Assembly: GCA_016699445.1 (NCBI GenBank) | Contig: CP064976.1 | Span: 1,449,125 to 1,513,124 of the forward strand | From: Deltaproteobacteria bacterium | GTDB taxonomy: Bacteria > UBA10199 > JACPAL01 > GCA-016699445 | DNA: 64,000 nucleotides | Reading direction: 5' to 3' | Shown here: positions 6,047 through 55,874 of the stretch, in pieces | How positions within the stretch are numbered: position 1 is the first letter of the stretch | Layout of the letters: every line of letters starts with the position of its first letter | Notes under the pieces: model-generated | The model's database searches: none | Seen by the model: the letters and a program-made list of their open reading frames with translations, nothing else | What the model was told of the DNA's origin: nothing | Program-made: the position numbers and the translations under genes

Positions 6047-6052
6047 GATTTT

Positions 6053-12304: not shown

Positions 12305-12388
12305 ATAAGATCCAAATCCGGGTACTCAGGTAGTTATTTTACTCTGAATTCCGGAGACAGACGACTGACCCCAAGTTTTATTAAATAA

Positions 12389-12420: not shown

Positions 12421-12421
12421 G

Positions 12422-12493: not shown

Positions 12494-12657
12494 AAATGCT
12501 TTGCGGCTGCTATCAGAGGCTTTTTTTGAGTGCAACCTGAAATCCTAAGCATAAATTTAAATTTTCTATCCATTCCCCATTCCCCATTCCATAGAAGAAT
12601 TCTGTCTTGACGATTGCTCGGAGAGTGATCACTCTCCAGACATCTTAAGGAGGCTTT

Positions 12658-13497: not shown

Positions 13498-13600
13498 GAC
13501 TCTTTGCGTCACATCCTCCGCTTGAGGCGAGGATTGAGAGACTTCGTAAATTGTAATTTATAGAAGAAACTTTTTCCTTCCTTAAACCGATAACCTATCC

Positions 13601-14496: not shown

Positions 14497-14553
14497 AGTT
14501 TTTGGAAGGTAGCATCGATAGGACTGGCTTGAAAAGCATTTTTTGAAAAAATT

Positions 14554-25786: not shown

Positions 25787-25894
25787 CATATTCGGGCTTT
25801 AATGGCGTCGTTTGAAATAAAATGAAAGCAAAATTTTTGGAAGGAGTGAAAGCCGTTGACAAGATTCTTTTTGGAAGCACATACCGCACACCGC

Positions 25895-27001: not shown

Positions 27002-27106
27002 TTCTTTTCGCCTAGTTTTTAAGCAGTGCTCAAAAAAGAAGCTGATTAAAAGAAATCGTAAAAAATAAAATCATTATTTTTCAGTGACTTAATTTTTTAA
27101 AATCGT

Positions 27107-27122
27107 TGGCATTGTCTTTGCT
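27107..27122 (+). promoter_or_regulatory. Sigma-54 (RpoN) -24/-12 promoter upstream of the porin-amt-glnK operon
   Basis: TGGCAT-tgtct-TTGCT fits TGGCAC-N5-TTGCW with GG and GC spaced exactly 10 nt apart, ~60 nt upstream of the porin start codon. Confidence 0.55.
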
Positions 27123-27183
27123 CAAGGCGGAAGCAGGAACTGTCTTTTTAGTTTTTATTAACTTTCAACCAGAGGAGTCAAAA

Positions 27184-28305: not shown

Positions 28306-28412
28306 TTATTTTTATCGATCTGCCTGAAGCGAAAGCTTCAGGCACTCGAAGAGTTCTCTCTCGGCCGGGAGGGTTCTTTGGGTGTTCATTTTAAAAGAAT
28401 AGGAGACAATTT

Positions 28413-29975: not shown

Positions 29976-30323
<348 letters not shown>

Positions 30324-30361
30324 TGTCTGAACCACACTAGGTGACTGCGAGTAACTCTCTC

Positions 30362-30405
30362 AAGGCAGGGCTTCTTTTTAGAGGCCCTGCCTTGGTTTTA
30401 TTTTT
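30362..30405 (+). terminator. Rho-independent terminator after glnK
   Basis: AAGGCAGGGC-loop-GCCCTGCCTT hairpin followed by GGTTTTATTTTT. Confidence 0.6.
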
Positions 30406-30461
30406 AATAATTAACTGTTTTTTGACTTGCCAAACTAGTCAGTATCAAGAAGGGAAGCGCG

Positions 30462-32003
30462 ATGTTTAAATTCATAACGCCCAAATTAGCTGCATTTTTA
30501 ACCATGATTGCAGCTTTGACGATCACATCATCTGTTGCTTCAGCTCAGCAAGCTGTCCCTGTATTGCAGGTTCAGTTGCCACCACAAGCTGTGGCTCAGG
30601 CAGCAGTCGTTCCGACAACAACTGCAGTATCTTCCATAGCTTCTTCAAAAGAAGCCGATTTGGAACAAAGAATCAGCGATCTTGAAGCTTATATTAACAA
30701 CACGGCCAGAGGTTCTGACGCTGTTGACTCTAAAGTAACTTCAAAAATTGGTGGGGCAGGGCCTGGCCATAATGCGTGGATGATGATTTCAGCGGCTTTA
30801 GTTCTTTTTATGACTCTACCAGGGCTGGCTTTATTTTATGGTGGTCTTGTTAGGACTAAAAATGTGCTTTCAGTTTTAGCTCAATGTTTAGGTATTACAG
30901 GGCTTGTGACTATTTTATGGTGGGCCGTAGGTTATAGCCTCGTGTTTGCTCCTGGTGGTGCCATCCTTGGTGACTTGAGGCATGCTTTCTTTGCTGGAGT
31001 TGATGGTAATCCCAATACCAATTATGCCTACTGGGTATCGCACAATATTTTTGCCATCTATCAAATGATGTTTGCGATTATTACGCCTGCTTTAATTGTA
31101 GGAGCCATTGCCGAGCGTATGAAGTTTGGTGCGATTATGTTGTTTGTCGCCCTTTGGATGTTTGTCGTTTATTTTCCTTTGGCACACATGGTGTGGGGTA
31201 TTACCGGGATGATGAATGGTGTTTGGAATGCAGATGCCTCAATTAAGGCGGTCGATTTTGCGGGTGGTACTGTTGTTCATATGTCTTCCGGTTGGTCGGC
31301 CTTGATTCTCTGTCTCATTTTAGGAAAACGACTTGGTTTTGGAAAAGATCATTTTCCTCCACACAGCATGGTTTTGTGTATGGTGGGGACGGGGATGTTG
31401 TGGGTGGGTTGGTACGGATTCAATGCAGGTAGTGCTGTCGCAGCTGATGGTGTAGCGGCCAATGCTTTTGTGACAACAACTATAGCCGCAGCGGTAGCTT
31501 GTTTTACTTGGGGATTTATAGAGTATGTCCTTAAAGGAAAGCCCAGTATTTTAGGCTTCTGCTCAGGTGCTGTAGCAGGACTAGTCGTGATCACACCAGC
31601 TTGTGGTTTTGTGACAGTCTCATCAGCTATTATTATTGGTCTTTTGGCAGGGAGCGTTTGTTTTATCGCCTGTTACAAACTCAAACATATTTGTGGGTAC
31701 GATGATGCTTTGGATACGTTTGGTGTTCACGCTATTGGTGGTACGATGGGTGCCTTACTCACAGGATTTTTTGCAACGGCTGATGTAAATGCAAATCTTC
31801 TAACAAATCTTAAAGATATTGTTGGAAAAACTTTGTGGTGGGAGCAATTAAAAGCGATGGGTTTGACGATAGTTGTTTCTATTGTGGCCACAGTCGTCAT
31901 TGCCGCTATTGTGAAGTCTGTTGTGGGGCTTCGTCCGACTCCAGAACAAGAACAGGAAGGCTTGGATCAAACGGATCATGGAGAAGTTGGATATCATTTT
32001 TAA
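30462..32003 (+). CDS. amt: Second ammonium transporter (Amt family) with ~90 aa N-terminal periplasmic extension
   Basis: Signal peptide, Gln/Ala/Val-rich spacer with a short coiled-coil (EADLEQRISDLEAYINN), then a canonical Amt core (DFAGGTVVHMSSG, GFFATADVN). Confidence 0.9.
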   Translation: MFKFITPKLAAFLTMIAALTITSSVASAQQAVPVLQVQLPPQAVAQAAVVPTTTAVSSIASSKEADLEQRISDLEAYINNTARGSDAVDSKVTSKIGGAGPGHNAWMMISAALVLFMTLPGLALFYGGLVRTKNVLSVLAQCLGITGLVTILWWAVGYSLVFAPGGAILGDLRHAFFAGVDGNPNTNYAYWVSHNIFAIYQMMFAIITPALIVGAIAERMKFGAIMLFVALWMFVVYFPLAHMVWGITGMMNGVWNADASIKAVDFAGGTVVHMSSGWSALILCLILGKRLGFGKDHFPPHSMVLCMVGTGMLWVGWYGFNAGSAVAADGVAANAFVTTTIAAAVACFTWGFIEYVLKGKPSILGFCSGAVAGLVVITPACGFVTVSSAIIIGLLAGSVCFIACYKLKHICGYDDALDTFGVHAIGGTMGALLTGFFATADVNANLLTNLKDIVGKTLWWEQLKAMGLTIVVSIVATVVIAAIVKSVVGLRPTPEQEQEGLDQTDHGEVGYHF

Positions 32004-32369
<366 letters not shown>

Positions 32370-32411
32370 TCATTTAAACAATGAATAACATAATTAAGGA
32401 GGAAGTATAAT

Positions 32412-33839
32412 ATGGCTATGACACCAAAAGACGTTGTCTCCTTTGCCAAAGAAAACAAAACGGCAATGGTAGATATTAAATTCACCGACTTCCCAGGTAC
32501 CTGGCAACATTGGACTTGTCCCGTGTCTCAGTTTTCTGAAGAAGTTTTCGAAAGAGGATTTGCTTTCGATGGATCTTCCATCCGCGGATGGCAGCCAATC
32601 AACGCTTCAGATATGGCAATGATTCCTGATCCTTCAACTGCGAGAATGGATCCGTTCAATAAATTACCCACGCTCAGCTTGATTGCCGACATCGTGGATC
32701 CTATCACCAAACAGCCTTACAGCCGTGATCCTCGCTATGTGGCGAAGAAAGCTGAAGCCTACGTGAAGTCCACAGGTATCGGTGATACCATTTATTTTGG
32801 GCCTGAAGCTGAATTTTTTATTTTTGATACAGTTCGTTTTGACAGCACACAAAATAGTTCGTTCTTTCATGTGGATTCTTCCGAAGGTCGTTGGAACTCC
32901 GGAAAAGAAATCCTTCCTGATGGAAGTAAAAACCTTGGTTATTTACCAAACTACAAAGGTGGCTATTACCCCGTGTCTCCTAACGACACATTAGGTGATC
33001 TCCGCGCTGAAATTTGTATTGAGCTTGAAAAATTGGGATTGAGCGTTGAAGCCCAGCATCACGAAGTGGCCACAGGTGGTCAGTGCGAAATTGATTTCCG
33101 TTTCTCCACTTTGACAGCTACAGCCGACAACTTGATGTGGTTTAAATATGTCGTGAAAAATGTGGCTCGTCGTTATGGAAAGACTGCGACCTTCATGCCA
33201 AAACCTCTCTTTGGTGATAATGGTTCTGGAATGCATTGCCATCAATCCATCTGGAAAGGTGACAAGCCTCTTTTTGCTGGTGATAAGACCGGTGGACTTT
33301 CCGAAATGGGAATTCACTACATCGGTGGTATCTTGAAGCATGCGAAAGCCATCGCTGCTTTCACAAACCCAACGACAAATTCTTACCGTCGTTTGGTCCC
33401 TGGTTATGAAGCTCCTGTAAACTTAGCTTATTCTGCTCGTAACCGTTCTGCTGCGATCCGTATTCCAATCGTCAATTCTCCAAAACAACGACGCATTGAA
33501 GTACGTTTCCCTGATCCTTCAGCCAATCCTTACCTGGCCTTTGCTGTGATGTTGATGGCTGGTATTGATGGAGTGCAAAATCGTCTGGATCCAGGTGAGC
33601 CTCTGGATAAGAACATCTATCATCTCTCTCCTGAAGAAGCGAAGAATGTCCCTCAAATGCCTGGCAGCCTCACAGAAGCCTTGTCATCTTTGGAGCAGGA
33701 CAACGCCTTCATGATGAAGGGTGATGTGTTCACGGAAGACGTGATCAGCACATGGATTGATTATAAAGTGGAAAACGAAGTGGATCCTGTCCGTCTTCGC
33801 CCAGTGCCTCAAGAGTTCGCACTTTATTTTGATATCTAG
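32412..33839 (+). CDS. glnA: Glutamine synthetase type I
   Basis: 475 aa. Includes the N-terminal beta-grasp, the catalytic region and the adenylylation-loop region [16 protein letters not shown]. Confidence 0.95.
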
Positions 33840-38405: not shown

Positions 38406-39539
38406 ATGAATCCAGAGAAAGCCTTTAAATACGATGTTTTGATTAATGCAGAGGATCTTTGTGATCGGGAATTTGAACAGCAAGATTTCCTCAAGCGGGC
38501 TAAGGCGAAAAAACGCACTATTGTTTTTGCGCCTCGGCGTTATGGAAAAACGTCTCTCATCAAGAATGTTGTTGGCAACTCATTCTTTAACTTAAGTCGA
38601 AATCATCTGGTTCTTTTTTTTGATCTCATGGACGTTCAAAGTATGGAGTCCATTGCCAAACGCCTTCATCATGGAATTACCCAGGCGCTTTCCCGACGAT
38701 TTCCAGTCAAAACTCTTCTTAAAAACGCCACGGACTATTTGAAAGGATTTTCTCTGCAGATGGATATGGACCCAGTGACAGGGCAACCGTCTCTTTCAAT
38801 GAATGTCAAAGGAAGAGAAGTTGAAAATGAAATGACTCATCTGATGGCTGCCATCAAGACGCTATCTCAGAAATATCCCACCCTGATTATTTTGGATGAA
38901 TTCCATGATATTACCTTCGTCCCTGAAGCCGAGGCATTATTTCGCGGAGTTCTTCAGGAATTGGGTGAGTCGGCTGTGTTTATTTTGGGCTCAAAACGAC
39001 ATCTTTTGACGTTGATGTTTCAGGATGCGCGAGCGCCTCTCTTTCAATATGGAGATGAGATTCATTTAAATCCCATAGCTCTTGAAGACTGGCTCGATTA
39101 TTTTCGAGAAAGAATGACTCCCAATAAAATCATCATTGGTGAGGAAGAACTGAAGTGGATTCTTGAAACTCTGTGCGATGTCCCTAATGCTATCTGCGAG
39201 TTTGGCGCGTGGTTGCTGGATAACATCCCCTCGGGAATGACTTTATCCGTCGGTGTCATCAAACAGTCTCTGGATCTGATGGTAGAGAACAAACAGAGTT
39301 ATGCATATATGCTGCAAGGCTATACTGAAAAAGAGCTCGATTTGATGACGGTGATAGCAAAAAATAAATTTACCCTGGAGCCGCACGCCGAATCGTTCTT
39401 GAAACTCATACGGGTTTCTAAATCCACTGTAGGGAAAATCGTAAAGAAATTCATGGATCGGGGATTGATCGAGTATGAATTGGAAAAGGGCTACCGTCTT
39501 TCAGACCCTCTTATGGGGCATTACTTGGCCACTCGGTAA
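38406..39539 (+). CDS. AAA-family ATPase (DUF234/archaeal-ATPase-like) with C-terminal winged-helix-like region
   Basis: Walker A VFAPRRYGKTSL, Walker B IILDEFHD, and C-terminal KFMDRGLIEYELEKGYRLSDPLM. Confidence 0.7.
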   Translation: MNPEKAFKYDVLINAEDLCDREFEQQDFLKRAKAKKRTIVFAPRRYGKTSLIKNVVGNSFFNLSRNHLVLFFDLMDVQSMESIAKRLHHGITQALSRRFPVKTLLKNATDYLKGFSLQMDMDPVTGQPSLSMNVKGREVENEMTHLMAAIKTLSQKYPTLIILDEFHDITFVPEAEALFRGVLQELGESAVFILGSKRHLLTLMFQDARAPLFQYGDEIHLNPIALEDWLDYFRERMTPNKIIIGEEELKWILETLCDVPNAICEFGAWLLDNIPSGMTLSVGVIKQSLDLMVENKQSYAYMLQGYTEKELDLMTVIAKNKFTLEPHAESFLKLIRVSKSTVGKIVKKFMDRGLIEYELEKGYRLSDPLMGHYLATR

Positions 39540-41143
39540 AATTTTCTTCCACCACATGACAGCTACACCCGCCGCTGCTGTTAGCTCCGGGTGTTTCTCC
39601 AGGGTTAGGGTTGTTGCCTGCAGAACCTGATGTTCCGGAGTCTCCACCCGTTCCAGAAGATCCACCTGTGCCACCAGAGCCAGAAGGCCCACCAGTGGCC
39701 AAAGTTCCCCCACTGCCGCTGGATCCACCTGTTCCACTTCCGCCACCACTACCTCCAGAAGATCCACCTGAGCCGTTAGACCCACCGCTACCACTGGATC
39801 CGCCAGTGCCCTCTCGTTGGCAAGTGGCCGAGCATCCATCTCCAGAAATGCTATTTCCATCGTCGCAGGTTTCATTTCCCATCACGATGAAGTCAGGGCA
39901 GATAGCTTCCACGGGGCCTATATCGCAATTAGTGTCTCGCATGCAGCCTAGTTGATAGGGTACAGGATGAAAAATATAAGCCTGTCCAATATCATTCAGA
40001 TTATTTTCAAACCCATTACAATCCAACGTGTTTTGATCTATGGCGGATGCTCCTATGCTTCCCGGAAAGTAAGTTTTGTAAGTGTCGTTATAAACAATCG
40101 CGGGTGTATTGCTTACAATGTCTGGAAGAAGGGAAGTGCTTCGAGTGACAGGACATGCGAAGCGATCAGAAGTCCCGATGATGTTTTTTCCTAATGAAAA
40201 AAGAGTAGAGGACCCCTCTATTCCACTCATATAACAATCAGAACCTGTTGCTATTGATGGCGACACGTTGTTATTCGAAATAATACTGTTTTTGATACTG
40301 CTAAAGGAGTTTTGCATCACAATGCCTGGATATACATTCGACGTGTTTGCTGTAATGATAGAATTCCAAAGTGCAAAATTGACCCCTATCACATACAAGC
40401 TGGTTCCAGTATTTCCAAAGATAGATGAGTTTTGAATATAAAGATTGGGACGTAGGATTGATGTTGAATAGCTCCGAGCAAAGATACCTATACCATTATT
40501 TTCATAAATCGAACTTTTTGAAATAAGTAATGTCGCTGCATTAGTTGAGCAGGAGTCTAGAGGAAGATATCCAAGATAGATACCATGGCTTCTATTTTGG
40601 GTGATGACTGAGTTTTCAAGAGAGACAAATAAATTACATGCACTGCTGATATAAAGACCTCTTAGACCTCCTCTAATATCAAGCTTTTCTAATTTGACAT
40701 CAGAACGAGGCCCTCCATCAGAAAATATTTTGATCACATCGCTTGTTGTGAATGTATCTGTTCCCGAAATGATAGCCCGGTTGTTGTTCGTTGTAGTTAT
40801 TAATAGAGAATGACTTATGAATAAAGAGCTGATGGGGGTGGGTCCATAGCCGCTTAACAGGAGCCCTTGCGTAAGAGTATAAGACTGTCCTCCAATCAGC
40901 AAAATCGTATCTTGTTGTCCAAAATCACTACCTGTATTGGTGCAACCCCCTAAGTTGGATGATATATTGACCGATTCAATAGCCTCTCGTAACGAACATG
41001 TCGTATTCGGCATCGGAGTATCATACTCATCCACTGTCGTATTCACCCGAATCGTTGCAGCCTCAGCTGAGGAGAGAGTTAGGAGAATGAACGAGAGAAA
41101 AACGAGAGAAAAGATTTTTAGATGTTGGTTCTGGAAATTTCAT
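39511..41143 (-). CDS. Secreted right-handed beta-helix (PbH1 repeat) protein with a ~90 aa Gly/Ser/Thr-rich C-proximal stalk; probable frameshift in the signal-peptide region (~41115-41140)
   Basis: Repeated IxGN/SxI beta-helix rungs (NSSIFGNTGTSLYV, NSIITANTSN, SSIKNSIISNN). C-terminal (GSG/GTG)n run. ATG at 41143 with a GGAG RBS; the signal peptide (…IFSLVFLSFILLTLSSAEA) sits one frame off downstream of an A5 run. Confidence 0.6.
39590..39830. repeat. Low-complexity GGN/AGY-codon repeat tract (encodes the Gly/Ser/Thr stalk)
   Basis: Degenerate repeats of ccacc(a/t)g(t/a)gg / ggatccacc units. They produce spurious ORFs 39501..39875(-) and 39611..39955(+) in the other frames. Confidence 0.7.
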
Positions 41144-42431: not shown

Positions 42432-43006
42432 ATGAATTGGTTTCAGTCTATCATTATGGCTTTTATTCCGATCTTTGTAGCGATTGATCCACTGGGGATG
42501 GTGCCTGTTTTTTTATCGATGACTCAGGGATTGATCCTCTCAAAGTGAAGACAATTGCCAATCAGGCCACTTGGACGGCAGCTGCGATTGCCATTGGTTT
42601 TGTTTTTTTAGGGAAAATTGTTTTTAAAGCATTGGGTATTACGATTCCTGATTTTCAAATAGCGGGTGGATTGGTGTTGTTGGCGATTGCTATTAAAGAT
42701 CTTTTGTTTCAGGCCGAACGCATTCCGTTGTCTCAGGAGAGTATTGGTGTTGTTCCTTTAGGGATGCCACTAGTGGCGGGCCCGGCTTTGATTACGTCTT
42801 TGATCGCGTTGGTAGACACGGTTGGTATTCTCTCTACGGTTATTGCTTTGGGTATTAATCTGGTTCTGGTTATTATTACTTTTCGTTATGCGGCCAAACT
42901 GGCTTCATGGGTGAGTGTTTCAGGGATGAAAGCTATGGCCAAAATTGTGTCTCTTTTATTGGCCGCGATTGCAGTGAATATGATTCGTCGTGGAATAAAT
43001 TTATAA
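42432..43006 (+). CDS. marC: MarC-family (UPF0056) inner-membrane protein, with 1-nt frameshift at ~42527 (GGG versus GGGG)
   Basis: MNWFQSIIMAFIPIFVAIDPLGMVPVFLSMTQG, then a frame change to (I)DPLKVKTIANQATWTAAAIAIGF...; six TM helices overall. Confidence 0.75.
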
Positions 43007-44663: not shown

Positions 44664-44752
44664 CGGAGGAGGAGGGATTCGAACCTCCGATACGGTATTA
44701 CCCGTATAACGGTTTAGCAAACCGCCGCCTTCAGCCACTCGGCCACCCCTCC
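44664..44752 (-). tRNA. tRNA-Ser (GCT)
   Basis: Reverse complement GGAGGGGTGGCCGAGTGGCTGAAGGCGGCGGTTTGCTAAACCG + 20-nt variable arm + GGAGGTTCGAATCCCTCCTCCTCCG. One mismatch in the T-stem. Confidence 0.8.
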
Positions 44753-44848
44753 CACATTTCCTGAATTTCACTGGACTTCGTGAAACGAGACACGCCATTA
44801 TCGTTTGAAATATTTTAATGTCAATTTGTAACTCTCCTTAATGTAAAA

Positions 44849-47078
44849 ATGAAACAAGAATCTAAAAAAAATAAAAAAAGAAAAGGTCTCCCTTGGGGAC
44901 TTTTCCTCTTTGTTTGTGTGATGGGTCTTGGGCTGTATGTTGTGGCCTTAGACATGCAAATTCGTAAAAAGTTTGAATCTCATCGGTGGAATCTTCCTTC
45001 AAGAATCTATTCGGATTCCTATGCTCTTTATCCAGGCCGTTTAGTGGATCCTTCTGAAATTGAAGCCCGTCTGGATCGGTTGGGTTATAAAAAAGGCCTA
45101 CCGGACCTAAAAATGTGGGAGAATATATAAGGGGAGCTAATCAGGTTTCTATTTTTCTCCACAGTTTTTCGTATCCTTCGGGCGATATTGATGGAGTTCC
45201 TATCCAAATCAGTTTTGCAGAGCGTAAGATCACATCGATTGTGCGTTTGGATAATCAGGAAGTTTTAAAAACAGTGAAGCTTGAACCTGAGCTTGTTGCT
45301 TCTATTTTTGATGAAAAAATGGAAGACCGTACCTTGGTGTCCATGACTGATATCCCTGATGCTCTTCTCAATGCCGTGGTAGCTGTGGAGGATGAGCGCT
45401 TTTATTCTCACCATGGGGTAGATCCTATTGGTTTGGCAAGGGCACTATTGGTAGATTTGGTTCATTTAAAAGCCGTGCAGGGTGGAAGTACTCTGACTCA
45501 GCAATTGGTTAAAAATTATTTTCTGACTTCCAAAAAGACTTTTGGGAGGAAGTTAAATGAAATGGTGATGGCTCTCATTTTGGAAGCTCGTTACACCAAA
45601 GAGGAAATTCTAGAAGCTTATCTTAACGAAATTTATTTTGGCCAACGTGGAGCTGTCTCTGTGACCGGTGTGGAAGAAGCCGCTAAAATGTTTTTTTCCA
45701 AAAGTGTGAGTCAGCTTTCCATTGCCGAATGTGCGCTGATAGCGGGTGTTATTCGATCTCCAGGGGAATATTCGCCTTTTCGTAATATCAACAAAGCCTA
45801 CGATCGTCGCAATTTTGTCCTTAAAATGATGTGGAGTCAGGACGTCATCGATGATCGTGAATATGCGGATGCTAAAAAAGAGAAGATTATATTGTCTCCT
45901 GTGAATAATCGCTTTTTGCGAGCGCCTTATTTTGTCGATTTTATTCAGACTCAGCTGAAATCAGATTATTCAACCGATGTGCTCAAATCAGAAGGCTTGA
46001 GAATTTTTACTACACTAGATCCTTTGGCTCAGGATATTGCTGAAGAAGCTTTGCAAAAGCATTTGGAAAAGCTGGAGGCTGACAAGCCCAAACTCAAAAA
46101 GAATCGTGAAGAAGGCAAAACTCTCGAAGGTGTTTTTGTAGCTGTGCAGCCTCAGACTGGAGCGATACGCGCTTTTGTCGGGGGCGGGATTATGAAGTGA
46201 GTCAGTTTGATCGTGTAACTGAGGCGCATCGACAGCCAGGTTCGGCTTTTAAACCTTTTGTCTATCTCACAGCTCTTAATCAAGAAGGTGGAAAATATAC
46301 GTTGGCTTCGACTCTTGAAGACACGTCTTTTACGGTGAAGAGCGGGGATAAAAATTGGTCGCCTGAAAACTATGATAAACAAGAGCATGGGACGGTTCCA
46401 ATGCGAGAAGCTCTTGAGCAGAGTATGAATATTGCCACAACACGCTTAGCAATGGATGTGGGTCTTGATTTGGTTGTGGACATGGCTCATGGGGCAGGGA
46501 TCGATAGTCCTTTAGATCCTGTACCTTCTCTTGCTTTAGGCGCTTTTGAAGTGACGCCTTTGGAATTGATTCGTGCGTATACGATTTTTCCTAATCAGGG
46601 TACACGTACAGAGCCTGTGGCATTGATGAATGTAGTCACGCGCGATGGTGTCTTGCTTGATAAGAAAAGTTATCAGATGAAACGTGTGATTTCTCCGGAA
46701 GTAGCCTATCTCATGAATAATCTTTTGCGAGGTGTGGTGGATCGTGGAACAGCCGCTTCTTCACGAACGATGGGTTTTTCGGGATTAGCTGCAGGGAAGA
46801 CGGGAACGACGTCTGATTACAAAGACAGTTGGTTTGCAGGATATACTCCGGATTTGTTGGCGGTGTCTTGGGTGGGCTATGATGATAATACCTCGACGGG
46901 ATTGTCAGGAGCTTCGGGACCGTTGCCGATTTGGACAGAATTTATGAAGCGAATGAATCCTCCAGGGGCTTCTCAGGCAGATTTTTCAGCGACTGATAAT
47001 ATTGTGATGGTGAAGTTTGAAAGAGATGGGAAGAGTTATGAAGAGCCTTTTATCAAAGGAACAGAACCGAATGATTAA
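44849..47078 (+). CDS. mrcA: Class A penicillin-binding protein 1A (bifunctional glycosyltransferase/transpeptidase), with two single-nt frameshifts at ~45120 and ~46193
   Basis: N-terminal TM anchor. GT51 motifs: EDERFYSHHGVD, GGSTLTQQLVKN, RKLNEM. Then transpeptidase motifs: GSAFKP (SxxK), SxN region and GKTGTT (KTG). The frames join as ...VGGG|DYEVSQFDRV at a G-run. Confidence 0.85.
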
Positions 47079-47496
47079 ATATATTGGTCTCGTTTTAATT
47101 TTATTTGTCATGAGTTGTGTGAAGCCAGCCACTCATAAAACTCACTCTGATGTCAAAGTCACGCATAAGTCCCCTGTCGTGATGGCTAAAAATAATGAAG
47201 TGACACCTGAACGAACAGCCGCTCAGCACTTGGTTGAGATGGGAAAAGACGCTGTGGCTCAAAATCATTATGATCAAGCCACCGACTCCTTTCAGGAAGC
47301 GATGGCGGTCGATCCTTCTTATGGGGTGTCTTTTTTAGAACTCGCGAAGCTTAAATACCATTTGGGGAATATCGACGAATCCAAAAGCCTTTTGGAAAAA
47401 GCCTCATCTCTTTTAAGTCATGAGCCTGATTGGGAAAGTCTCTGGCAACCCGAAATTGAAAATTTCAAAGCAACTTTTCTCACGCCTGCTCGATAA
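47071..47496 (+). CDS. Small lipoprotein with TPR-like repeat
   Basis: MIKYIGLVLILFVMSC lipobox, followed by TPR-like helices (AQNHYDQATDSFQEAMAVDPSYG...LAKLKYHLGN). Confidence 0.5.
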   Translation: MIKYIGLVLILFVMSCVKPATHKTHSDVKVTHKSPVVMAKNNEVTPERTAAQHLVEMGKDAVAQNHYDQATDSFQEAMAVDPSYGVSFLELAKLKYHLGNIDESKSLLEKASSLLSHEPDWESLWQPEIENFKATFLTPAR

Positions 47497-47505
47497 TCAT
47501 GGCTT

Positions 47506-48834
47506 ATGGATTCGATTGCTCTCCGTGCCCATGTGCATAGTTTTTTTTCAATAGGGACGTGTCATTTAGAAGGCATAGAAAGAAAACTGTTAGGAAGTTT
47601 TTTTACACCCTCCTCGCTATACAGAGAATTAAAAGCGGAGGATTGTTATACAGCTAAGGCACTCGCTACGATCTTGGATTCAAACGCTCATCTCAATCAC
47701 TTTGGGACAGAAAAGTTTGCTGCGGCGGGTGTTTTTTTGAGAAAAACGTTAAGTGAAGTGGATGGGTTTAAAAGGACGGATCAATTAAATCGTTTTGTGG
47801 ATTTGATGAAACAAGGCCTTCTCTGGAGTGGCTTGGAAAGATTATTTTCCGAAAGCGGTTATAGTCGTCCGGCATTTTCAAAAATGAATCCTTATATTTC
47901 TGATCCTATTGAAAGCGCTATTTTTGATCGAGCTTGCATGTCTCCTTTGGGAGCCGTGTTGATGGTTCGTACGGGGCAAATCTTGAACCCTCTCCAATAT
48001 GATGCCTCTGCCCTAGACCCTTCTCAAACCTATGATCGATTAGTAGAAATGGCGACACCCACACGTGTTAAAGAAGAAATGAGTCTTGAAGATAGGATTA
48101 TTGCTGCTCAAAAGAGTGGGCTTTCTTTAAGAGACATAGCGGCTCAAAGAATCGGTACAGCGGATACAGGTTATATTCTGAATCAAAAACTAGCAGAAAA
48201 AATAGTCGCTGTTGTGTCAGCAATGAAAGACTTTTCAGACGCTGACAGGAATCTTTTAAGAGAAAAATATGAAGATTGTTTAAGCGCATGGATCTATCTG
48301 CATTTGTCAGGGCAGTCTGTGTCTGTCTCTGATTTGTTAGTTTTTTTTCAAGAATGGGTAGAGTCGGGAGTTTTTCTTCCTCCCTTTATGAATGATCTTT
48401 TTATACTCGCAGATTCTTTGAAAAGACAAAATAGGATTCGGATCGTTTCAGGACGTGAGATGGAATGTCTGATTCGATCTCAAACTCCATTTTCAAAAAA
48501 TCCTACACATGGATTTTTTGATCCTCATAGTGGACTTATTTACATACGAGACATTTCCAATGTTATCAGCGATGACGCTGAATTGATCAATGCTTTCATC
48601 TTTCGAATGCAAGCTTTGATAAGCTCTTTAGAGGAAGCGCGTCATATTGGAGAAAATCTGGGGCCTCTTCCTCAACGACAGCAAAAAATTGTGCGTCACG
48701 CTCATATCAAAGCCGTACAGCTTTTTTGGACCTGTCAGACGACGAGTGATAATGAGTTGTTGCTTATGAAAAAATTAGGAATGGATTTTGGAGACTACTG
48801 CTGCCTCGAAAGTCCTTTTTTAGATCATTCTTAG
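47506..48834 (+). CDS. Effector-like hypothetical protein, paralog A (degenerate HExxH)
   Basis: C-terminal ~110 aa aligns with paralog B (FFDPHSGLIYIRD...MQALISSLEEARH). The metal-binding His residues are replaced. Confidence 0.5.
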   Translation: MDSIALRAHVHSFFSIGTCHLEGIERKLLGSFFTPSSLYRELKAEDCYTAKALATILDSNAHLNHFGTEKFAAAGVFLRKTLSEVDGFKRTDQLNRFVDLMKQGLLWSGLERLFSESGYSRPAFSKMNPYISDPIESAIFDRACMSPLGAVLMVRTGQILNPLQYDASALDPSQTYDRLVEMATPTRVKEEMSLEDRIIAAQKSGLSLRDIAAQRIGTADTGYILNQKLAEKIVAVVSAMKDFSDADRNLLREKYEDCLSAWIYLHLSGQSVSVSDLLVFFQEWVESGVFLPPFMNDLFILADSLKRQNRIRIVSGREMECLIRSQTPFSKNPTHGFFDPHSGLIYIRDISNVISDDAELINAFIFRMQALISSLEEARHIGENLGPLPQRQQKIVRHAHIKAVQLFWTCQTTSDNELLLMKKLGMDFGDYCCLESPFLDHS

Positions 48835-48859
48835 AATCAGAATATTTTAGGCAACTTTT

Positions 48860-50230
48860 ATGGGAGATGGACGAAGAGGGAGTATGGTTGCTTCTCCGAA
48901 TTTTGTAGTCCCTTTAAAACCCTCTCCCGTAGTGGTTTATCCTATCAATGTGATTCAGGATCAATTGGGGAAAATCGCTCTGCCTGAAGTTCAGAAATCA
49001 AAGCTATCCCGTCTTGTTTTGCAGTGTGAAGATGCCAATACAGACTCCATGTATTATCGGATGGAAGCTCTGCGTTTCTGCTTTCTTTCACGCGCCAATG
49101 ACACCTATCACGGCAATCTTACTTTAGCTCACATGGAATGTTTTGTTCGTGATCTCTTGAAAGATCCTGATGAAAGTAAGGCCTTGCAAGCTCTGCAATC
49201 TTTGTTTCGAAAAATGGATTCAGGTTTGTCTTTAAGTGATTTGGAAAAACTGTTTAAAGCCTACGACTATGAATCATCTCATCGAAAGCAGAGGGCTATT
49301 GATTATAAGACTTTTGATGACAACTATCACGGAGTGGAATCTCTTCGTACTTTGATTGAAGCTTCTCCTGCGTCTGGTATTATTTCGACTCGAGTGGATC
49401 ATCTACTCTCCGCACAGGGACAAAGAAGAAATCCGATTTGTGTGCCGGATCAGGTAGAAGATCTTGTTGGTGATAGAAAGTTGAGGGATTTGACTCAATC
49501 TTTAATGTCTTTGGCGACTTTTTTAAAAAAAGAAAAATCTATTTCTGATTTATCTCTAGAAGAAATTGCAAGAGCTCTTCATGGCTCTCACTACACAGGT
49601 TTTATTGAGGATCAGAGACTCACCATCCGTATGGCTCAAGTTTTAAGAGAAATGATGGTGATTTCCAAAGACAGTTTGGAGAGTAATCGAAAAAACTTTT
49701 TAAGAAAAGTGGATGAGATGTGGAAAGAGCGTACAGCAGGACCCTTACGTCTAGACCCTGATTCCGAGATACTGCCATTTTTAGAGTCTTCTGATTTTTT
49801 GAGATCTTCTAAAGTTTTTTCTTCTCTCGTTGAGATTGTTGGAGGGATTCGGCTTCGTGTCATTTCTGATGAAAAATTTGAAGATGAAAAAAAGAAATAT
49901 CCAGATCTTCCTGAGGATTGTTCCCTTGCCTTTTATGACAGACGTCAAAGAACTATTTTTTTGAGAGATTACTCTCGTGATTTGGATGTGAGCTTAGGGA
50001 GTGACCCTTTAATTCAAAGAATAGATGCTGTGATGCATGAGCTGGAGCATGTGAGACATTTTTCAAAAAAAACAAAATATTTAAAAACACGTCATCATAT
50101 TTTGGTATCTGAAGGACAATCTCGTGCAGTTGAGGGATTGTGGCGTTATTTCCATCATTCGAGCGCCGATCTTCAATTAGCCCATCGTCTGGGATTATCG
50201 GTGGGTGCTTTGTGGTGTTTGGATTTGTGA
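48860..50230 (+). CDS. Effector-like hypothetical protein, paralog B with intact zincin HExxH motif
   Basis: C-terminal FYDRRQRTIFLRD...IDAVMHELEHVRHF; no signal peptide or TM. Confidence 0.5.
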   Translation: MGDGRRGSMVASPNFVVPLKPSPVVVYPINVIQDQLGKIALPEVQKSKLSRLVLQCEDANTDSMYYRMEALRFCFLSRANDTYHGNLTLAHMECFVRDLLKDPDESKALQALQSLFRKMDSGLSLSDLEKLFKAYDYESSHRKQRAIDYKTFDDNYHGVESLRTLIEASPASGIISTRVDHLLSAQGQRRNPICVPDQVEDLVGDRKLRDLTQSLMSLATFLKKEKSISDLSLEEIARALHGSHYTGFIEDQRLTIRMAQVLREMMVISKDSLESNRKNFLRKVDEMWKERTAGPLRLDPDSEILPFLESSDFLRSSKVFSSLVEIVGGIRLRVISDEKFEDEKKKYPDLPEDCSLAFYDRRQRTIFLRDYSRDLDVSLGSDPLIQRIDAVMHELEHVRHFSKKTKYLKTRHHILVSEGQSRAVEGLWRYFHHSSADLQLAHRLGLSVGALWCLDL

Positions 50231-50266
50231 TCTATAAAAATATTTCTTGAAAAATATTTCCTGAAA

Positions 50267-53200
50267 TTAATTTCTGCGTCGAGGCGGTGTTTCTACTGTA
50301 GGTCCACGGGCGGCGGTTTGCAGCGTGCTGTCACCTTCTTGAGTCTGTGTACTTCCCTCTATTTCCAAGCCTCTATCAGTGATCCTGCCATTGTGAGTTA
50401 ACGTATGACCTTCAACGCGAGTGACAATCTGTAATCTATCATTCATGTGAATTTCACTTCCGCTATCCACCAAGTGACCATTGATTAAAACAACATTACC
50501 CTCTTGAATGTTGACGTTCCATGTGTGGCCGTCATTAGATCTTCTGAAAATTATAGGAGGAATCGTTTGAGGTGTTAATCTGGGAAGATTAACATTGGTC
50601 ATCGTTGGAAAGGTAGGTGCTTGCCCCCCTACGGTGATCAGATTTACCGAGGGATTTATATTTACAAAAGCGGGTAATGCCATGTTGGGGTTTGTCGAAT
50701 CACCGAAGTCAGGCTCAACGACAGTGGCATCAGTCGAAGCTGCTGCGGGAGTAGCCCGTCGTGATAAACTATTGGCTCGTTCCAAGTCTTGGCTTGTTAC
50801 GTTCATACTATCATCAAGAAGCATCATTCGTTCCTCTAATCGAGGATTCGTTACATAATGATCTCCCGCACGTGTAATAAATCCACGAGCCAAGGCTTCT
50901 TCCCGGGAAATAGAAAAGCGACTTTGTTCTCTTCTATTCATTGAATGGAGTGTTACCGTGAGATTTGGTGCATTAGCATCCAGGATACGAGTGCTTACTA
51001 AGACTTGTCCTGTCAGGACTCCAAAGCCTTGGGAGCTATCCCTGATGGAAAGGGTTTCAGCTCCTCCTTCAGAATTTTGAATGGATAAATCTCCAATGGG
51101 GACTTCGCTGTGAGAGATTGTTGGATTATTAATTTCTACAAATCTTCCAGTAATATTTAAGCGAATCCTTCCACCGGGAGGGAGTGTATAAGGTATTGGA
51201 GGTGTTGCAATACGACGTTGAGCTGGAGTGGTGTATCCTACCGGAACGTCATGACGAGGGAATAGTGTCGGTTGATCTTGTTGTACTACTGAAAGTCCGT
51301 TTGCACTCAAATTCCAATTACCATCTTGAGTGGGTGCCCCATCTCGAATCAGCATATTGCCATCGTTGTCGTAATCTACAGTAAAATGTTGGTTGGATAT
51401 ATTCTGGCCTGCCTCTGGAATATTGGAACGTCCAAAGATTGTGCGAGGGCCTTGAGTGGTCAGTGTGGATGTCGTGGTGTTTTGAATCTGGTCTTCTCAT
51501 GACGGGAAGAGATTCTATTCCTGGAAGCTGTGGTGAAGACCGAGATGGTTGAGCTGACGGAGAAGGTGTTGACATGGCTTGGGCAGGCAATTGAGCGAGA
51601 GGATCGTGAAATATAAATCTCCCCACAATAGTTTCACTCATACCCAGCCATGAGTTTTTGACAAGACTCACTTGATCACCTTCTCTAAATCCTGATCTTA
51701 ATGTATTCGGATCTGTCACTTCACTTCCTTGCCGAACGACACGCCAACGATGTCCTGAAGGTAATGTTGAATTGCTAAAAGTCCAGTAGGACTCTTGAGA
51801 GTTTGGCTTTGTGGCCCGTACAATTTCAAAACTATGCCCTCCGATCGTTCCGGGAGAAGGCTGATTGGGATTTCCAGTGATAGTAATTGGAGCGCCTACC
51901 GGAAGTGGTCTTCCATTTCCTAGAGGTCCTGAAGGTCCAATCCCTCCAGCTAATCCCCAAACAGCTGCGAGAAGGGGATTTGTCATCAAAGCATGTGGAC
52001 CGGGACGCATTGGACGGGACGTTGGTGCGGCATCACTCCTTCTGGTATGTTCTGGGTTAATCGCTTGAAAATGCACCACTGCTCCATCAGCTCCTCCCAA
52101 CCTCCACTCTGTCTCACTGATTTCCGTGATGGGAATATTCTGTTCTCGAGCCTGATTTCTTAAAGCTAATTTGGCATTGTTTCGAGCCCCAACAGAGTGA
52201 GTGATCGTTAGGGAGCGTTCTCCAGGATTGAATAAGTATCCGAGGCCTGCAGGTCTTTCTCCAGGAGATGCGAGAGGGTTATTGCAAAAATTATAAATGG
52301 GTGTCGCAATGGGTTGGGTGAATGGAATCGTCTCGGGCCCTGTAGTAGGACGTGTGTTGTTGGTGGCGTGGGTGGTCGTTGTAGGGGTGTCGTGAACAAT
52401 AAAATGACGAGCTGTATCGCCTTCTCCGACGATCACATGGTCTCCCACATTCAGAGGAAAATCGAGGCGTCTTTGGCTTGCTGGAATTAATTCTTCTGCT
52501 CCTGATGTGTGCCAGACAGTGACCGGGACTCCGGTTTGATTATTAACTAAAAGTCTTCCATCGTCTGATCGTGTAAAAGACAGATGCGCAGAGGCGCCCC
52601 TTAAGACAGAGACATTACGCCTTTCTCCAGAATGAAGAGGATGACCTCCAAGATTGATGATTTGAGGTGTCGATTCCGTCTGAGGTGGAGGCGTATAAGC
52701 TGATGCCCCAATCGCTACGGTCGAGCTGATTGGAAGTCGAGGGTCAGGTCTTGTGGCAGAGATTCTTCCTGTTCGTGATTCTCTTACAGAATTTTGTGGC
52801 AGTGACGGAGTGGTCGCCCCTACACTGCTAGGAGTCGATCTTCGAGATGGTGTCCTACCAAAAATAGCTCCTCCTAATCCACCATCAGCTCCTAAAATTG
52901 AAAACGTCAGTCCCAGGCCTGGAGAACGGAAGGGATTTGATAATCGCATGTCATTGGCTTGAGCGAGAGCATCGACCAGTTGTTGGGTTTGAGCATGTTC
53001 TTCTGCTGTAACGATGTCCCGTACAGCCACATGTTGTTCGAGTCGTTGTCTTGCGGCGACAGCTGCTCGGAGCCGATCTCGTACCTCACTGCCACGTCCT
53101 TCGCCCTGCGTGAAATAACGATTCCAGGCTTGACCGGCTTCCTGACTGGTTCTGACAGCGGCTTCATACCGCCCTCTCACACGCGAGAGTGCCACTTCTC

Positions 53201-55716
53201 TTGCCGCTCCGTGAAGACGACCTAAAATCGGTGACGTTGTGAGATGTCCCACACGCATGCCTAAGATGAAGAGAGCATTGTCCTGCAATGCTTGAGTACT
53301 GTTTAATGTTTCGTTGGTGGCACGGCTCAAATCAAAACGACTGTGGTAGATATCGGAAAAATTACGTTCGGCAAAACCCCATGTTTGAACCGCCGCTAAT
53401 TCAGGGACTATAGCTGCAGTATTTACGGCGGTGCTTGTCAATCCGTCTTGGGCGACGCGCGCGGCTCGAGCTTGGATAAGAGAGATCTCGGTGGCGGATC
53501 GTGTGCTGTTTGCAGCGAAGGTGCCTTCATGAATCAATTGTCGTTCAGCAATACGAGCATAAGCCGTTTGTTGAACCAAACGAAGTGTTTCTCCGATGAA
53601 AACATTGTTTCCAAAATTTCTTATATAATCTTCGCCATACCGTTCCAGATTTTCAGCTCCGGTTTGACTGCTGTCATGCAAGTTGTTCGTGCCCAACAAA
53701 ACATCAGAGGCCGCATAGTGAGCTAGTTGAAAAGCAGGCGTGGTTGCTGCTGTATAAAGAAGTCGGGTGCCTAAGGCAGCTTCTCCAGCTTCGATAGTCA
53801 GAGCTGTTTCGGGTAAGAGGAGAAGGCCTGCGGCATTCATTGTAGCAGCCGCAGCCGCCACAATGCCCAAGCTGAGACCAGCTTGTAAGCGTCCTGTGAA
53901 CACATGATGATCTTGCAGCTCTTGCCCCACTTGAGCTTGTTCGAGTTGAATAAAGTCATGTCGGGCTTGATCGAGACGTCCAGCGTTTAGATCCTCTCCG
54001 ATATTTTCGTAGCGGTGGATCAATTCTTCATACCGACTTGCGAAATCCGAAGTGCCTCCTTGAGCCGCACTTGCCCACGTGTTGATATAATCACCTGTTC
54101 GTATTTGAGGAAGTATCGTGCGATACATTTCGATGCGGCTGCGGATGGATTCTTGTAAAAGGGCTGTATCCATTTGACCCATGATTGATTGGTAATGCTC
54201 GAGTCGCACGCCCACATCAGAAAAATTTCCGTTTTGAGTTTGTACTCGTCTCATCTCGTCAGTGAGTTCAGGATTATTGGCTTCATGAAGCTCAGAATTG
54301 ATTAAAAGCCGCGCTTGCTCTTCGTCGCTACGCAGAGTGAATCTTACGGCCTCTGTGAGATTTTGAAGTATGTGAGGATCGTTGTGAGTCATGGCAACGA
54401 CTCGATTTTGCATCACTGTATTTTCTTGCTGCAGTTGTCGTAATCTTACTTCTTCAGGAGAAGGCTCAATCTCACCATCTATTTCAGAAGAGCCGCGTCC
54501 ACTGCGGACAGGATGAGAATGTTGCCGAAGAGCTTCGAGGCGATTGACCTCTTGAGATATTTCCTGACCACTCACTTGAAGACGTCTTAAAAGATCTTCT
54601 CGAGTTTGTTGCAAAGCAAGGGGTGGGAGACTTTCTGAAGAAGCATTTTCCAAAACTCTCAAACTTTGGTGAAGAGTCTCTATCGATGACAAACTTTCCT
54701 GAAGACGTCGTCGTGCCTGAAATCCTGGATTGTTTTCTAGATCTCGATGTTGAGTTTCTTGAACACGATTAAGAAATTGAAACAATGGATGAGGATGTTC
54801 GCGGTCGAGAGGATTGCCATACGTGTGATGAATGAAGTGAGTCTCTCTTTCTAAATCTTCAAGTCTGACCGTTTCATCTAGAGGATGCTGGTTGTTGATA
54901 TCAGCCACAGCTCCCGACATGGCTCTGGCCATTTCTTGTTCCCGAGGATTGGAAGAGCGAGCAAGCGTTTCGTAGGTTCTGATGATGGGGAGATTGCTTA
55001 TGATATCTGTGGAAGGAAGATAGGGACTTTGTTCTTCACGGACATCATAATACTCTAGATGTATGCCTCGAGAAGAAACAGGGTAATGATCTTGAATGAT
55101 GCCAATCATGCGCTCTCGGTGTGTATGCGCTTGGTAATAATTCCATGTAGTCGTAGCGATGTGTTGTCCATCAGCGGTGTTGCGAGCACGGTGATGAACA
55201 GCCCCCATGAGTAATAGTTCTCTCGCGCTCGACGAGTGTGCGAAATCCTTCAGAACGAATCTGTCCAGCGGCTTTCATGCGGCTTAAGTGTATGGAGAGT
55301 TGTGAGAGCTCTGCTAAACGAGCGTGCTGGCTGAAAGGTCGATCGGGATGACGTGCTTGTTCTCTTTCCATCGTCTCTGTGAGTCGATGAATTTCATTTT
55401 TTATTTGGTCTTCGAGCCGATCGACTTCGGATCGGTTTTGTAAAGAAGCAGCTGTCGTTGAGGGAGATGTTGGAGCCGCAATCGGTACCATGCCCGCCGC
55501 TCCGCGAAAGAGAGGATTAGTGGGGGCTATATTGGTTGTCCCTGGAGAGAGTGAAATGCTTGGAAGCGACAAGCTGAATCCGGGAGTGATAAAATGAGGT
55601 GTCGGTGGTGAAGGCTCCATGCCTCCAGGGCTTGGAGTTTCTGGAGTTTCCGGACGAGAGTGTGGTGTTCGATGGATACTTGGATAGGTAGGTGGTTGTC
55701 GGATGTGCTTCACCAT
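50267..55716 (-). CDS. Giant (~1,815 aa) Pro-rich / coiled-coil protein with central bilobed hydrophobic domain; reconstructed across two homopolymer frameshifts (~55200 G5 run; ~51480 A4 run)
   Basis: Listed ORFs 55171..55716, 51318..55208 and 50267..51355 are consecutive with overlapping ends. Removing one G at the catGGGGGctg run gives ...ERTITHGAVHHRARN. Removing one A at ttcAAAAcacc gives ...PVMRRPDSNTTTSTLTTQGPR... The N-terminus is PT/SP-rich. The centre has two hydrophobic helices ~50 aa apart (GLSLGIVAAAAATMNAAGLLLL ... ALGTRLLYTAATTPAF). Confidence 0.5.
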
Positions 55717-55874
55717 AAACGTCTAAACGGCACTTTCAGACGTTATCTTGAGCAATACCAATGCCTGGCATAATGCCAAAAAAGGCAATCTAATCAGTGA
55801 TTTTCGATCAAAGTGAGAATATTAAAGATAATTATTCTCATTATGAGAATAAGTGAGGTCTGCCAGTTGCACTA

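Follow-up and report, generated by a model that had tools for sequence, protein, structure and literature searches.

Tandem zincin-like paralogues and a convergent giant gene in the genome of a Deltaproteobacteria bacterium

What could tie two tandem genes, only one of which has kept the residues of a zinc peptidase, to a giant gene that meets them tail to tail? This question is raised by a locus lying at positions 47,506 to 55,716 of a 64,000-nucleotide (nt) stretch from an uncultivated Deltaproteobacteria bacterium (assembly GCA_016699445.1, contig CP064976.1, positions 1,449,125 to 1,513,124 of the forward strand); this whole stretch is called the window hereafter. The locus comprises two zincin-like paralogues, named here A and B, and a gene encoding a giant protein. 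A preliminary description, made from the sequence alone, had seen in them an effector-like locus. The analysis reported here suggests instead that they belong to a recurrent arrangement in which members of a rare gluzincin-like family face large or giant genes.

The zincin-like genes and their convergent partners

The three genes and the catalytic features of B are the following (aa, amino acids; ORF, open reading frame; HMM, hidden Markov model).

47506..48834, + strand: gene A, 442 aa, pseudo-zincin (ORF list, family HMM, catalytic columns)
48860..50230, + strand: gene B, 456 aa, intact gluzincin-like member (ORF list, 37-member family, AlphaFold2 model)
50036..50050, + strand: HELEH, B residues 393-397, HExxH motif (family conservation, modelled helix 382-401)
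50111..50113, + strand: Glu418 of B, candidate third zinc ligand (conserved in 35/37 members, modelled helix 411-432)
50267..55716, - strand: giant gene, 1,815 aa after two 1-nt homopolymer corrections (reconstruction and intact orthologues)

The locus carries the tags IPJ69_08375 and IPJ69_08385 in the NCBI record, and none of its five ORFs as deposited has a Pfam or NCBIfam match. The tandem ORFs of 442 and 456 aa are present as first described. Their paralogy also holds, but it is not confined to the shared C-terminal module to which it had been ascribed, since A and B align over ~424 aa, i.e., their full length (25% identity, BLASTP E-value of 1e-15).

B carries HELEH and, 21 residues past His397 on the following helix of its model, Glu418. 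At the position aligned with HELEH, A has SSLEE, so that the HExxH motif is found in B and not in A, and the four catalytic columns read S, S, E, H in A in place of H, E, H, E; the intact motif of one copy and the mutated ligands of the other had thus been read correctly. A is nevertheless matched by the family HMM with an E-value of 4.6e-80 and retains nine non-catalytic conserved positions (G85, M119, G122, R178, R387, R399, H400, R411 and G445). A sister strain is represented by L003, a Logan contig that is 98.4% identical to window positions 44717-51881 (7.2 kb compared). Between the two, A differs by 11 synonymous and 11 non-synonymous changes (22 in all), with a ratio of non-synonymous to synonymous changes per site (pN/pS) of about 0.28, and B shows 2 synonymous and 3 non-synonymous differences. 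By its family homology, its lost catalytic residues and the retention of its gene, A is a maintained pseudoenzyme, and B, which has all the catalytic residues of the family, is likely the active copy beside it. This agrees with the pairing of an active zincin and a pseudo-enzyme proposed at first. In the same strain pair, pS reaches 0.038 in A versus 0.007 in B, a difference of ~6-fold that comes from small counts and could be due to recombination or to differing constraint.

A dead copy is also carried by another locus, L002, where it is the only copy present. This orthologue, P0007, has R, T, K and Q at the catalytic columns. A and P0007 are each other's best match (113 bits) while B is nearest to P0006, P0010 and the long forms of the family, which indicates that the A/B duplication predates the split from the L002 lineage.

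The extent of the family depends on how it is searched for. In word-indexed homologue searches, B matched itself only, and the A/B profile found nothing beyond B and A-like sequences (a 98% variant of A). The family is defined here by an exhaustive HMMER profile search of 1.84 billion representative proteins, which gave 37 proteins with an E-value of 1e-3 or better. Most of them have 700-980 aa, with the A/B-like region at their C-terminus, and the long forms add a hydrophobic N-domain of ~300 aa. In the alignment of the 37 sequences (B numbering), the catalytic columns are 92-95% conserved (H393 in 34/37 members, E394, H397 and E418 in 35/37 each), and the only deviants at these columns are A and P0007, at all four, and P0006, which has Glu at the first His. 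The typical form of the motif is HExEHWRHF ... R..RLVSE.MA.LEE, the spacing from His to Glu being longer in long-form members. Since the motif columns are kept in 34-35 of the 37 members, HELEH is no chance match.

Curated libraries do not recognize this family. The SprT/Wss1-like fold that had been suggested finds no support in Pfam, where neither SprT-like, nor WLM, nor any other zincin family matches A, B or the 37 members; the only matches are SIR2 and DUF2802, in one member each. No match to NCBIfam was obtained for A, B or eight members, no PADLOC model matched any component of the locus, and searches of PDB sequences with the profiles of the A/B family and of the giant protein gave chance matches only. 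At the sequence-profile level, A and B thus define a previously unannotated gluzincin-like family, marked by HExxH and by a Glu that the following helix carries. The SIR2 match belongs to P0018, a member of 901 aa in which this domain (Pfam E-value of 4e-44) is fused upstream of the zincin-like region.

A model of B built from a 3-sequence alignment was unusable (predicted local distance difference test, pLDDT, of 39). From the 37-sequence alignment, AlphaFold2 gave a model with a pLDDT of 83.4 and a predicted template modelling score (pTM) of 0.86. In this model, B is all-helical up to about residue 327 (~330 aa), then forms three strands (331-335, 357-360 and 365-369), followed by a helix bearing HELEH (382-401) and another bearing E418 (411-432). 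Foldseek searches with the model found nothing with an E-value below 0.5, and the weak matches include the minigluzincins 2ejq and 4qhi as well as deuterolysin. The motif, the order of secondary structures and the partial fold matches together speak well, though not conclusively, for B having a module of gluzincin type.

The giant gene faces A and B tail to tail, and this arrangement, not peculiar to the window, is also met with in further uncultivated bacteria. Wherever the flanking sequence sufficed for the pairing to be scored, i.e., in 15 of 15 informative loci from ~12 lineages, the zincin-like gene or array has a large or giant gene opposite it in the tail-to-tail orientation, with tiny gaps or overlapping ends. 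The partners scored include the following.

Window: 1,815 aa, 36-nt gap
L002: 1,471 aa
L004 and L005: 1,998 and 1,923 aa, 4-nt overlap
L006: 5,841 aa, after a 168-aa ORF
P0009 contig: 6,261 aa, 5-nt gap
P0011 contig: 5,845 aa
L007: 985 aa, 4-nt overlap, facing a short-form zincin
L008: at least 2,119 aa, after two extra ORFs
L009: at least 3,330 aa
L010: at least 3,295 aa
L012: at least 848 aa
L013: 667 aa
P0010 contig: convergent ORF cut by the contig end

Modules shuffle within the neighbourhood of the family loci. The hydrophobic N-domain of the long forms is also found in separate neighbouring ORFs (L008, L010 and L012) and, in L013, inside the convergent partner itself (E-value of about 1e-45). 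The L008 array (positions 7987-14532, from the metagenome-assembled genome STL-UBA2) consists of three co-directional ORFs, a full long-form zincin with HEFEH followed by two ORFs that have only the N-domain. A convergent giant gene lies behind the array, and upstream there is another ORF, of at least 2,587 aa. Tandem arrays in which some copies are incomplete are therefore recurrent in the family.

The giant protein and its predicted regulation

The giant ORF of ~1,800 aa that had been announced does correspond to one gene of 1,815 aa, but it is not a single ORF in the window. As deposited, it is split into three overlapping frames (55716-55171, 55208-51318 and 51355-50267), and an uninterrupted frame of 1,815 aa is obtained by deleting one base at each of two homopolymers.

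55202..55206: first frameshift site, a C5 homopolymer of the + strand (read as G5 in the giant gene), located by a tblastn frame change
51480..51483: frameshift site 2, a T4 run in the giant gene, which is T3 with an open frame in L003

At the first site, tblastn with the intact homologues P0003 and P0004 switches frame between 55201 and 55232, at the G5 run. Over the 7.2 kb compared, L003 differs from the window by only three indels, all in homopolymers and all restoring ORFs: T4 versus T3 at 51480 in the giant gene, and A6 versus A7 and G5 versus G6 in the gene of the penicillin-binding protein PBP1A, which is intact in L003 (743 aa). The gene of phosphoglycerate kinase (PGK) is in two pieces with the same kind of break, at about 19752-19794. 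Because the indels lie in homopolymers, orthologues are intact and the PBP1A and PGK genes are broken alike, the frameshifts of the giant gene are likely an assembly error and not a sign of decay. Conserved genes are thus frame-broken at 45089, 46180, about 19752-19794, 51480 and 55202; a sulfatase at 6053-8162, which is in two ORFs, may have undergone the same kind of damage, and a MarC-family ORF (42545-43006) that lacks ~38 N-terminal profile positions is possibly damaged likewise. The assembly appears to carry systematic errors of homopolymer length, so that any ORF-based reading of the window calls for care.

Three features stand out in the reconstructed protein.

55432..55716, - strand: Pro/Ser/Thr-rich N-terminal 95 residues, probably disordered (composition; short motifs conserved in orthologues)
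53793..53903, - strand: sole strong hydrophobic segment, residues ~605-641, VFTGRLQAGLSLGIVAAAAATMNAAGLLLLPETALTI (Kyte-Doolittle 1.96)
51122..51457, - strand: predicted FHA domain, reconstructed residues ~1420-1531 (below the Pfam cut-off, above it in orthologues; GR and SxxH)

The protein begins with a P/S/T-rich N-terminus, continues with a helical region of ~500 aa in which L, R, E and Q abound (residues 100-640), the hydrophobic segment and a second conserved helical region, and ends with S/T/P linkers and beta-rich modules including FHA. The PT/SP-rich N-terminus described earlier is thus found again (P 20%, S 13% and T 12% in residues 1-100). The coiled-coil-prone central regions noted at first are hinted at by the composition in L, R, E and Q and by PDB matches to the coils of myosin and tropomyosin, all sub-threshold. 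The hydrophobic segment is rich in Ala and Gly and hardly varies among four homologues (central-ORF columns G448 to L470); it may serve as a membrane anchor or else form a helix buried in the protein. On the other hand, the two hydrophobic helices ~50 aa apart that had suggested a bilobed domain were not recovered: the Kyte-Doolittle profile has a single strong peak (1.96 at residues 616-634), the next segments being weak (1.3-1.4 at 934-952 and 1242-1260) and 300 and 600 aa away. The protein therefore lacks the arrangement of Inc-like proteins, i.e., two transmembrane (TM) helices of ~20 aa separated by a short loop. Homology of its hydrophobic region (590-960) to the N-domain of the long-form zincins was considered and dropped, as hhalign gave a probability below 1% and an enriched N-domain HMM gave non-significant E-values (0.29 for the window protein and 0.052 for that of L004).

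The FHA domain (Pfam PF00498) scores 14.6 bits in the window protein (E-value of 0.046), below the cut-off of 20.7, while two orthologues exceed this cut-off, P0004 with 24.3 bits at the aligned position and the L004 protein with 22.1 bits. The signature FGRS ... SNQH of the window protein has its GR and S-x-x-(H/N) aligned in both. Other FHA-like copies seen by eye at ~1040-1130, 1285-1390 and 1735-1800 were not significant and are not retained.

The N-terminal ~950 aa of the giant protein are conserved among homologues (31-59% identity) and match no known domain in Pfam or PDB, whereas the C-terminal parts vary in content. P0003 (1,471 aa) shares 59% identity over residues 26-938, P0004 (1,927 aa) shares 49%, and the L004 protein (1,998 aa) shares 31% over residues 12-946 and 33% over 1249-1812. 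Over its last 362 codons, the giant gene differs from L003 by 1 synonymous and 7 non-synonymous changes, counts that are too small to test. The giant-protein profile had no match in genome and metagenome collections, and a survey of the literature on giant-gene/FHA systems and on the STL-UBA genomes found nothing relevant. In L001, the gene next to the giant gene encodes a protein kinase.

More distant partners also bear FHA domains. That of L006 has a match of 38.6 bits together with an HD domain, the neighbour of P0009 has a precomputed match, and those of L009 and L010 are recognized by a custom FHA profile. Distant partners furthermore have HD and RelA/SpoT-like matches. Kinase-like and PP2C-like regions suspected in the partners of L006 and L007 had no Pfam support at E-values up to 0.1 and are not claimed. 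In the same way, homology between the window-type giant proteins and the partners of the long-form zincins was sought and not retained, as no BLAST link was found and FHA is all that they have in common.

Two motifs precede the giant gene.

55751..55765, - strand: predicted sigma-54-type promoter GGCAT-N5-TTGCT (GGCATTGGTATTGCT), 35-49 nt 5' of the giant ATG
55835..55849: perfect 15-nt palindrome TTCTCATAATGAGAA, ~70-85 nt upstream of the sigma-54-type promoter

The pattern GGCAY-N5-TTGCW has 2 matches in the whole window versus 0.48 expected. A sigma-54-type motif lies 34-49 nt upstream of the giant start in L001, L002, L004 and L005, as the exact GGCAC-N5-TTGCT in L002 and L004. The palindrome is identical, and at equal distance, in L004 and L005 despite giant proteins that are only ~31% identical, and L002 has a form that differs by one central base on the best-matching strand and retains the half-sites. 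The palindrome is a candidate site for an enhancer-binding protein, and these conserved motifs point to an expression of the giant gene that would depend on sigma-54 and such a protein.

Sigma-54-type motifs were also seen elsewhere. The other match in the window (27108-27122, + strand) precedes a cluster at 27106-33839 (an OmpL-like porin, two tandem amtB and glnA) that looks like a classical nitrogen regulon, amtB/glnA clusters being classical members of the sigma-54 regulon. The 10.8-kb contig L007 has four matches (903-917, 3608-3622, 4256-4270 and 8762-8776, - strand) lying 5' of its four genes of the - strand, three directly and one ~220 nt upstream of the gene of the 985-aa partner. In L006 (JGI 3300020129), a protein of 1,657 aa with protein kinase, TPR, GAF and sigma-54-activator domains is encoded at 1169-6142, ~4 kb upstream of the zincin/giant pair; this protein might act as an enhancer-binding regulator linking Ser/Thr phosphorylation to sigma-54.

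Origin of the locus and competing explanations

Upstream of A and on the same strand lie two genes.

44849..47496, + strand: PBP1A (three ORF pieces, two homopolymer indels) and a small TPR lipoprotein (Pfam Transgly, Transpeptidase, TPR)

A and B are co-oriented with this pair, the gaps being 9 nt between the TPR lipoprotein gene and A and 25 nt between A and B. The order PBP1A, TPR, zincin is the same in L002, L003, L004 and L005, and the wider order SerRS ... Leu/Phe-transferase ... MarC ... PBP1A, TPR lipoprotein, zincin, giant gene is found in relatives, even where the giant protein is only ~31% identical. Housekeeping genes are present in the window, and the scan of its ORFs of 150 aa or more revealed no gene for a secretion system, an integrase or a transposase.

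The locus had been described as GC-richer than its surroundings. This is true of the giant gene, whose pieces have a GC content of 0.45-0.52 (0.45-0.51 in 1-kb windows over 51-56 kb versus ~0.425 for the whole window), but not of A and B (0.40). Moreover, it is the first two codon positions that carry the excess (GC2 of 0.48-0.57 versus 0.38), whereas GC at third positions (GC3, about 0.32-0.41 at the locus versus 0.378 +/- 0.043 in other genes) and synonymous codon frequencies within amino-acid families (z from -1.4 to +1.2) are those of the background. The rise in GC therefore reflects a protein rich in Pro, Ala, Gly, Arg and Thr and not foreign DNA. Deviant GC3 or codon usage, mobility genes and patchy presence, by which genomic islands are known, are not observed here. 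Since GC3 and codon usage equal the background and synteny is conserved, the locus is, as far as composition and gene order can tell, a native and vertically inherited module.

Two other lineage-restricted or unusual genes lie in the window. A 511-aa ORF (39511-41046, - strand) with a GC2 of 0.53 and a borderline match to DUF4215 Cys-rich repeats is another lineage-specific protein near the locus. A homologue of deoxyhypusine synthase, an enzyme uncommon in bacteria (25856-27001, + strand; Pfam DS, E-value of 3e-87), adjoins a gene (24230-25219, - strand) encoding a Fic-like C-terminal region and HATPase_c_4. The 36-nt gap between the convergent stops of B and the giant gene (50231-50266) is AT-rich and contains the direct repeat AAAAATATTTC twice; a terminator-like hairpin was sought in this gap and none was found. 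As a speculation, convergent 3' ends without a terminator could make the expression of both sides mutually interfering.

The explanation that we prefer, and to which we would give slightly less than an even chance, is that of a native module in which a cytoplasmic protease and a pseudoprotease act on, or with, a giant scaffold that reads phospho-threonine. B would be a cytoplasmic zinc peptidase, A a non-catalytic binding or regulatory subunit, and the giant protein their dedicated target or partner, which would be processed, turned over or gated. This scaffold would be expressed conditionally, under the control of sigma-54 and an enhancer-binding protein, would possibly be anchored in the membrane and would read threonine phosphorylation through its FHA domain. 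With such roles, the best inference is that the locus is involved in intracellular signalling or regulation rather than encoding a set of secreted effectors. A broader version, in which an undescribed two-part system associates a metalloprotease/pseudoprotease having a detachable N-domain with the control of a sigma-54-induced, phospho-threonine-reading giant scaffold of 1,800-6,300 aa, is possible but doubtful.

Several observations weigh against this protease and scaffold module. The partner proteins form at least two groups that share no BLAST or HMM similarity except FHA, the FHA match of the window protein lies under the Pfam cut-off, and P0003 is without the FHA-bearing C-terminus. In L001, it is the kinase gene and not a zincin that follows the giant gene (the contig ends soon after). 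Zinc binding and proteolysis by B are deduced from a motif and a model, and the tie of A and B to the giant protein from the adjacency of genes that, being convergent, are not co-transcribed. Finally, L002 keeps a dead copy only and P0006 has Glu for the first His, so that catalysis would not always be required.

The initial proposal, according to which these genes are horizontally acquired effectors or translocators of a type III, IV or VI secretion system (T3SS, T4SS or T6SS), with a giant protein entering the host membrane by its bilobed domain, had several arguments in its favour. The genes are lineage-restricted and unannotated, and a hydropathy scan and inspection revealed no N-terminal signal-like hydrophobic segment in A, B or the giant protein, as first noted for all three; a giant protein with a Pro-rich N-terminus, helical regions and a hydrophobic segment would also be suitable, and sub-threshold Pfam matches to Yop-YscD_cpl (L004 and L006 giants) and T3SS_needle_E (P0003) were obtained, those of YscD type being explained by likeness to FHA. 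This framing has become very improbable in view of the native GC3 and codon usage, the housekeeping synteny kept across relatives whose giant proteins are 31-61% identical, the single hydrophobic segment in place of a bilobed pair and the lack of secretion or mobility genes among the scanned ORFs of the window; furthermore, FHA domains are typically intracellular phospho-threonine readers. Even less credible is the idea of decaying or spurious genes, with a giant gene that would be a true pseudogene, A a decaying duplicate and HELEH a chance occurrence. The two frameshifts as deposited, the complete loss of catalytic residues in A and the 7 non-synonymous versus 1 synonymous changes in the last giant codons (too few to test) would fit it. 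It is opposed by the three L003 indels, all homopolymeric and breaking otherwise intact genes, by the similar breaks in the essential PBP1A and PGK, by intact orthologues of 1,927 and 1,998 aa, by the motif kept in 34-35 of 37 members, and by the pN/pS of 0.28 of A together with its orthologue in another genome.

The tiny gaps and common strand of the TPR lipoprotein gene, A and B, and the recurrence of PBP1A, TPR and zincin in four other loci, would suit accessories of cell-wall synthesis co-transcribed with PBP1A and the TPR lipoprotein, the giant gene being an incidental neighbour in this lineage; actinobacterial FHA proteins are moreover known to regulate peptidoglycan synthesis (FhaA, PknB). 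This is rather unlikely, as long-form members elsewhere are not beside PBP1A and still face a giant gene, and as A and B, lacking both a signal peptide and a membrane segment, would stay out of the periplasm. A further reading is a conflict system akin to polymorphic toxins, in which the N-terminal part of the giant protein would serve for delivery and its C-terminal modules would be swappable, the zincin being a processing protease and its dead form an immunity protein or antidote. The conserved N-terminal ~950 aa next to C-terminal contents that differ among the window, P0003, P0004 and L004 proteins, the enormous distant partners with HD and RelA/SpoT-like matches, which are common in conflict systems, the SIR2 fusion of one family member and the recurrence of dead paralogues could be understood in this way. 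We nevertheless hold it to be quite unlikely: no PADLOC model matches, no recognizable toxin domain was found, the variable part consists of FHA and beta-rich modules and not of toxins, immunity genes are usually small and co-directional, and the locus is syntenic, single-copy and without hallmarks of mobile elements.

If the broader version, that of an undescribed two-part system, is true, it would represent a proteolytic switch of a new kind acting on bacterial Ser/Thr signalling, or else a new conflict system. In any case, a rare protease-like family that escapes curated libraries (37 clusters in 1.84 billion representative proteins) is tied by a consistent gene arrangement to very large proteins; to our knowledge, partners of up to 6,261 aa are among the largest bacterial proteins on record. 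If this coupling is functional, it would give a first handle on the role and control of giant FHA proteins in uncultivated bacteria, and A and B provide a natural active/inactive pair for studying the evolution of pseudoproteases. It should also be kept in mind, as a caution, that the three odd genes noticed at first include one broken by the assembly and that their GC anomaly is one of amino-acid composition.

Comparison with known systems

Among known peptidases, the closest likeness of B is to the minigluzincins (selecase; PDB 4qhi and 2ejq) and to the predicted zincin-like metalloprotease Acel_2062 (3e11), which have an HExxH helix and a Glu ligand ~20 residues further on, on the next helix. 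These proteins also have, like the model of B, a small sheet ahead of the active-site helix, and 2ejq and 4qhi are among the weak Foldseek matches. However, no sequence similarity to them is detectable, the fold scores are modest and B has an additional all-helical N-terminal region of ~330 aa, to which most family members further add the hydrophobic N-domain of ~300 aa. SprT and Wss1 (WLM) likewise have HExxH in a small alpha/beta module, but the family has no Pfam match to them and its third conserved residue is a Glu, at least 21 residues downstream.

As a working analogy, ImmA/IrrE (COG2856) and MtfA, which binds Mlc, are cytoplasmic HExxH proteases whose partner is encoded nearby or bound directly. 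No homology to them was detected, and the partner is here a giant FHA protein of 1,800-6,000 aa instead of a small repressor. The zincin-like and giant genes are moreover convergent and not co-transcribed, and cleavage of the partner is a proposal here.

The giant protein shares its GR and SxxH signature with FHA scaffolds of Ser/Thr-kinase signalling such as the mycobacterial FhaA and with the cytoplasmic FHA-like domains of YscD/CdsD; the kinase gene beside the L001 orthologue and the S/T/P-rich linkers also recall FHA scaffolds. In contrast to FhaA and YscD, FHA is a small part of its 1,815 aa, the N-terminal ~950 aa of which match nothing known; in contrast to YscD/CdsD, there is no T3SS context in the window and the YscD-type Pfam matches are below the cut-off. 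With chlamydial Inc proteins and T3SS translocators, it has in common a hydrophobic segment between helical, possibly coiled-coil regions and the lack of a signal peptide. It differs from Inc proteins, which have two closely spaced TM helices, by its one segment of ~26-37 aa, its FHA-bearing C-terminus, its native codon usage and a neighbourhood without secretion genes.

Finally, the region upstream of the giant gene resembles sigma-54 promoters of the glnA/NtrC type. It shows the GG-N10-GC geometry of such promoters (-24 GG and -12 GC elements, TGGCAC-N5-TTGCW) and a palindrome ~70-85 nt upstream, the difference being that no gene for an enhancer-binding protein lies within the window.

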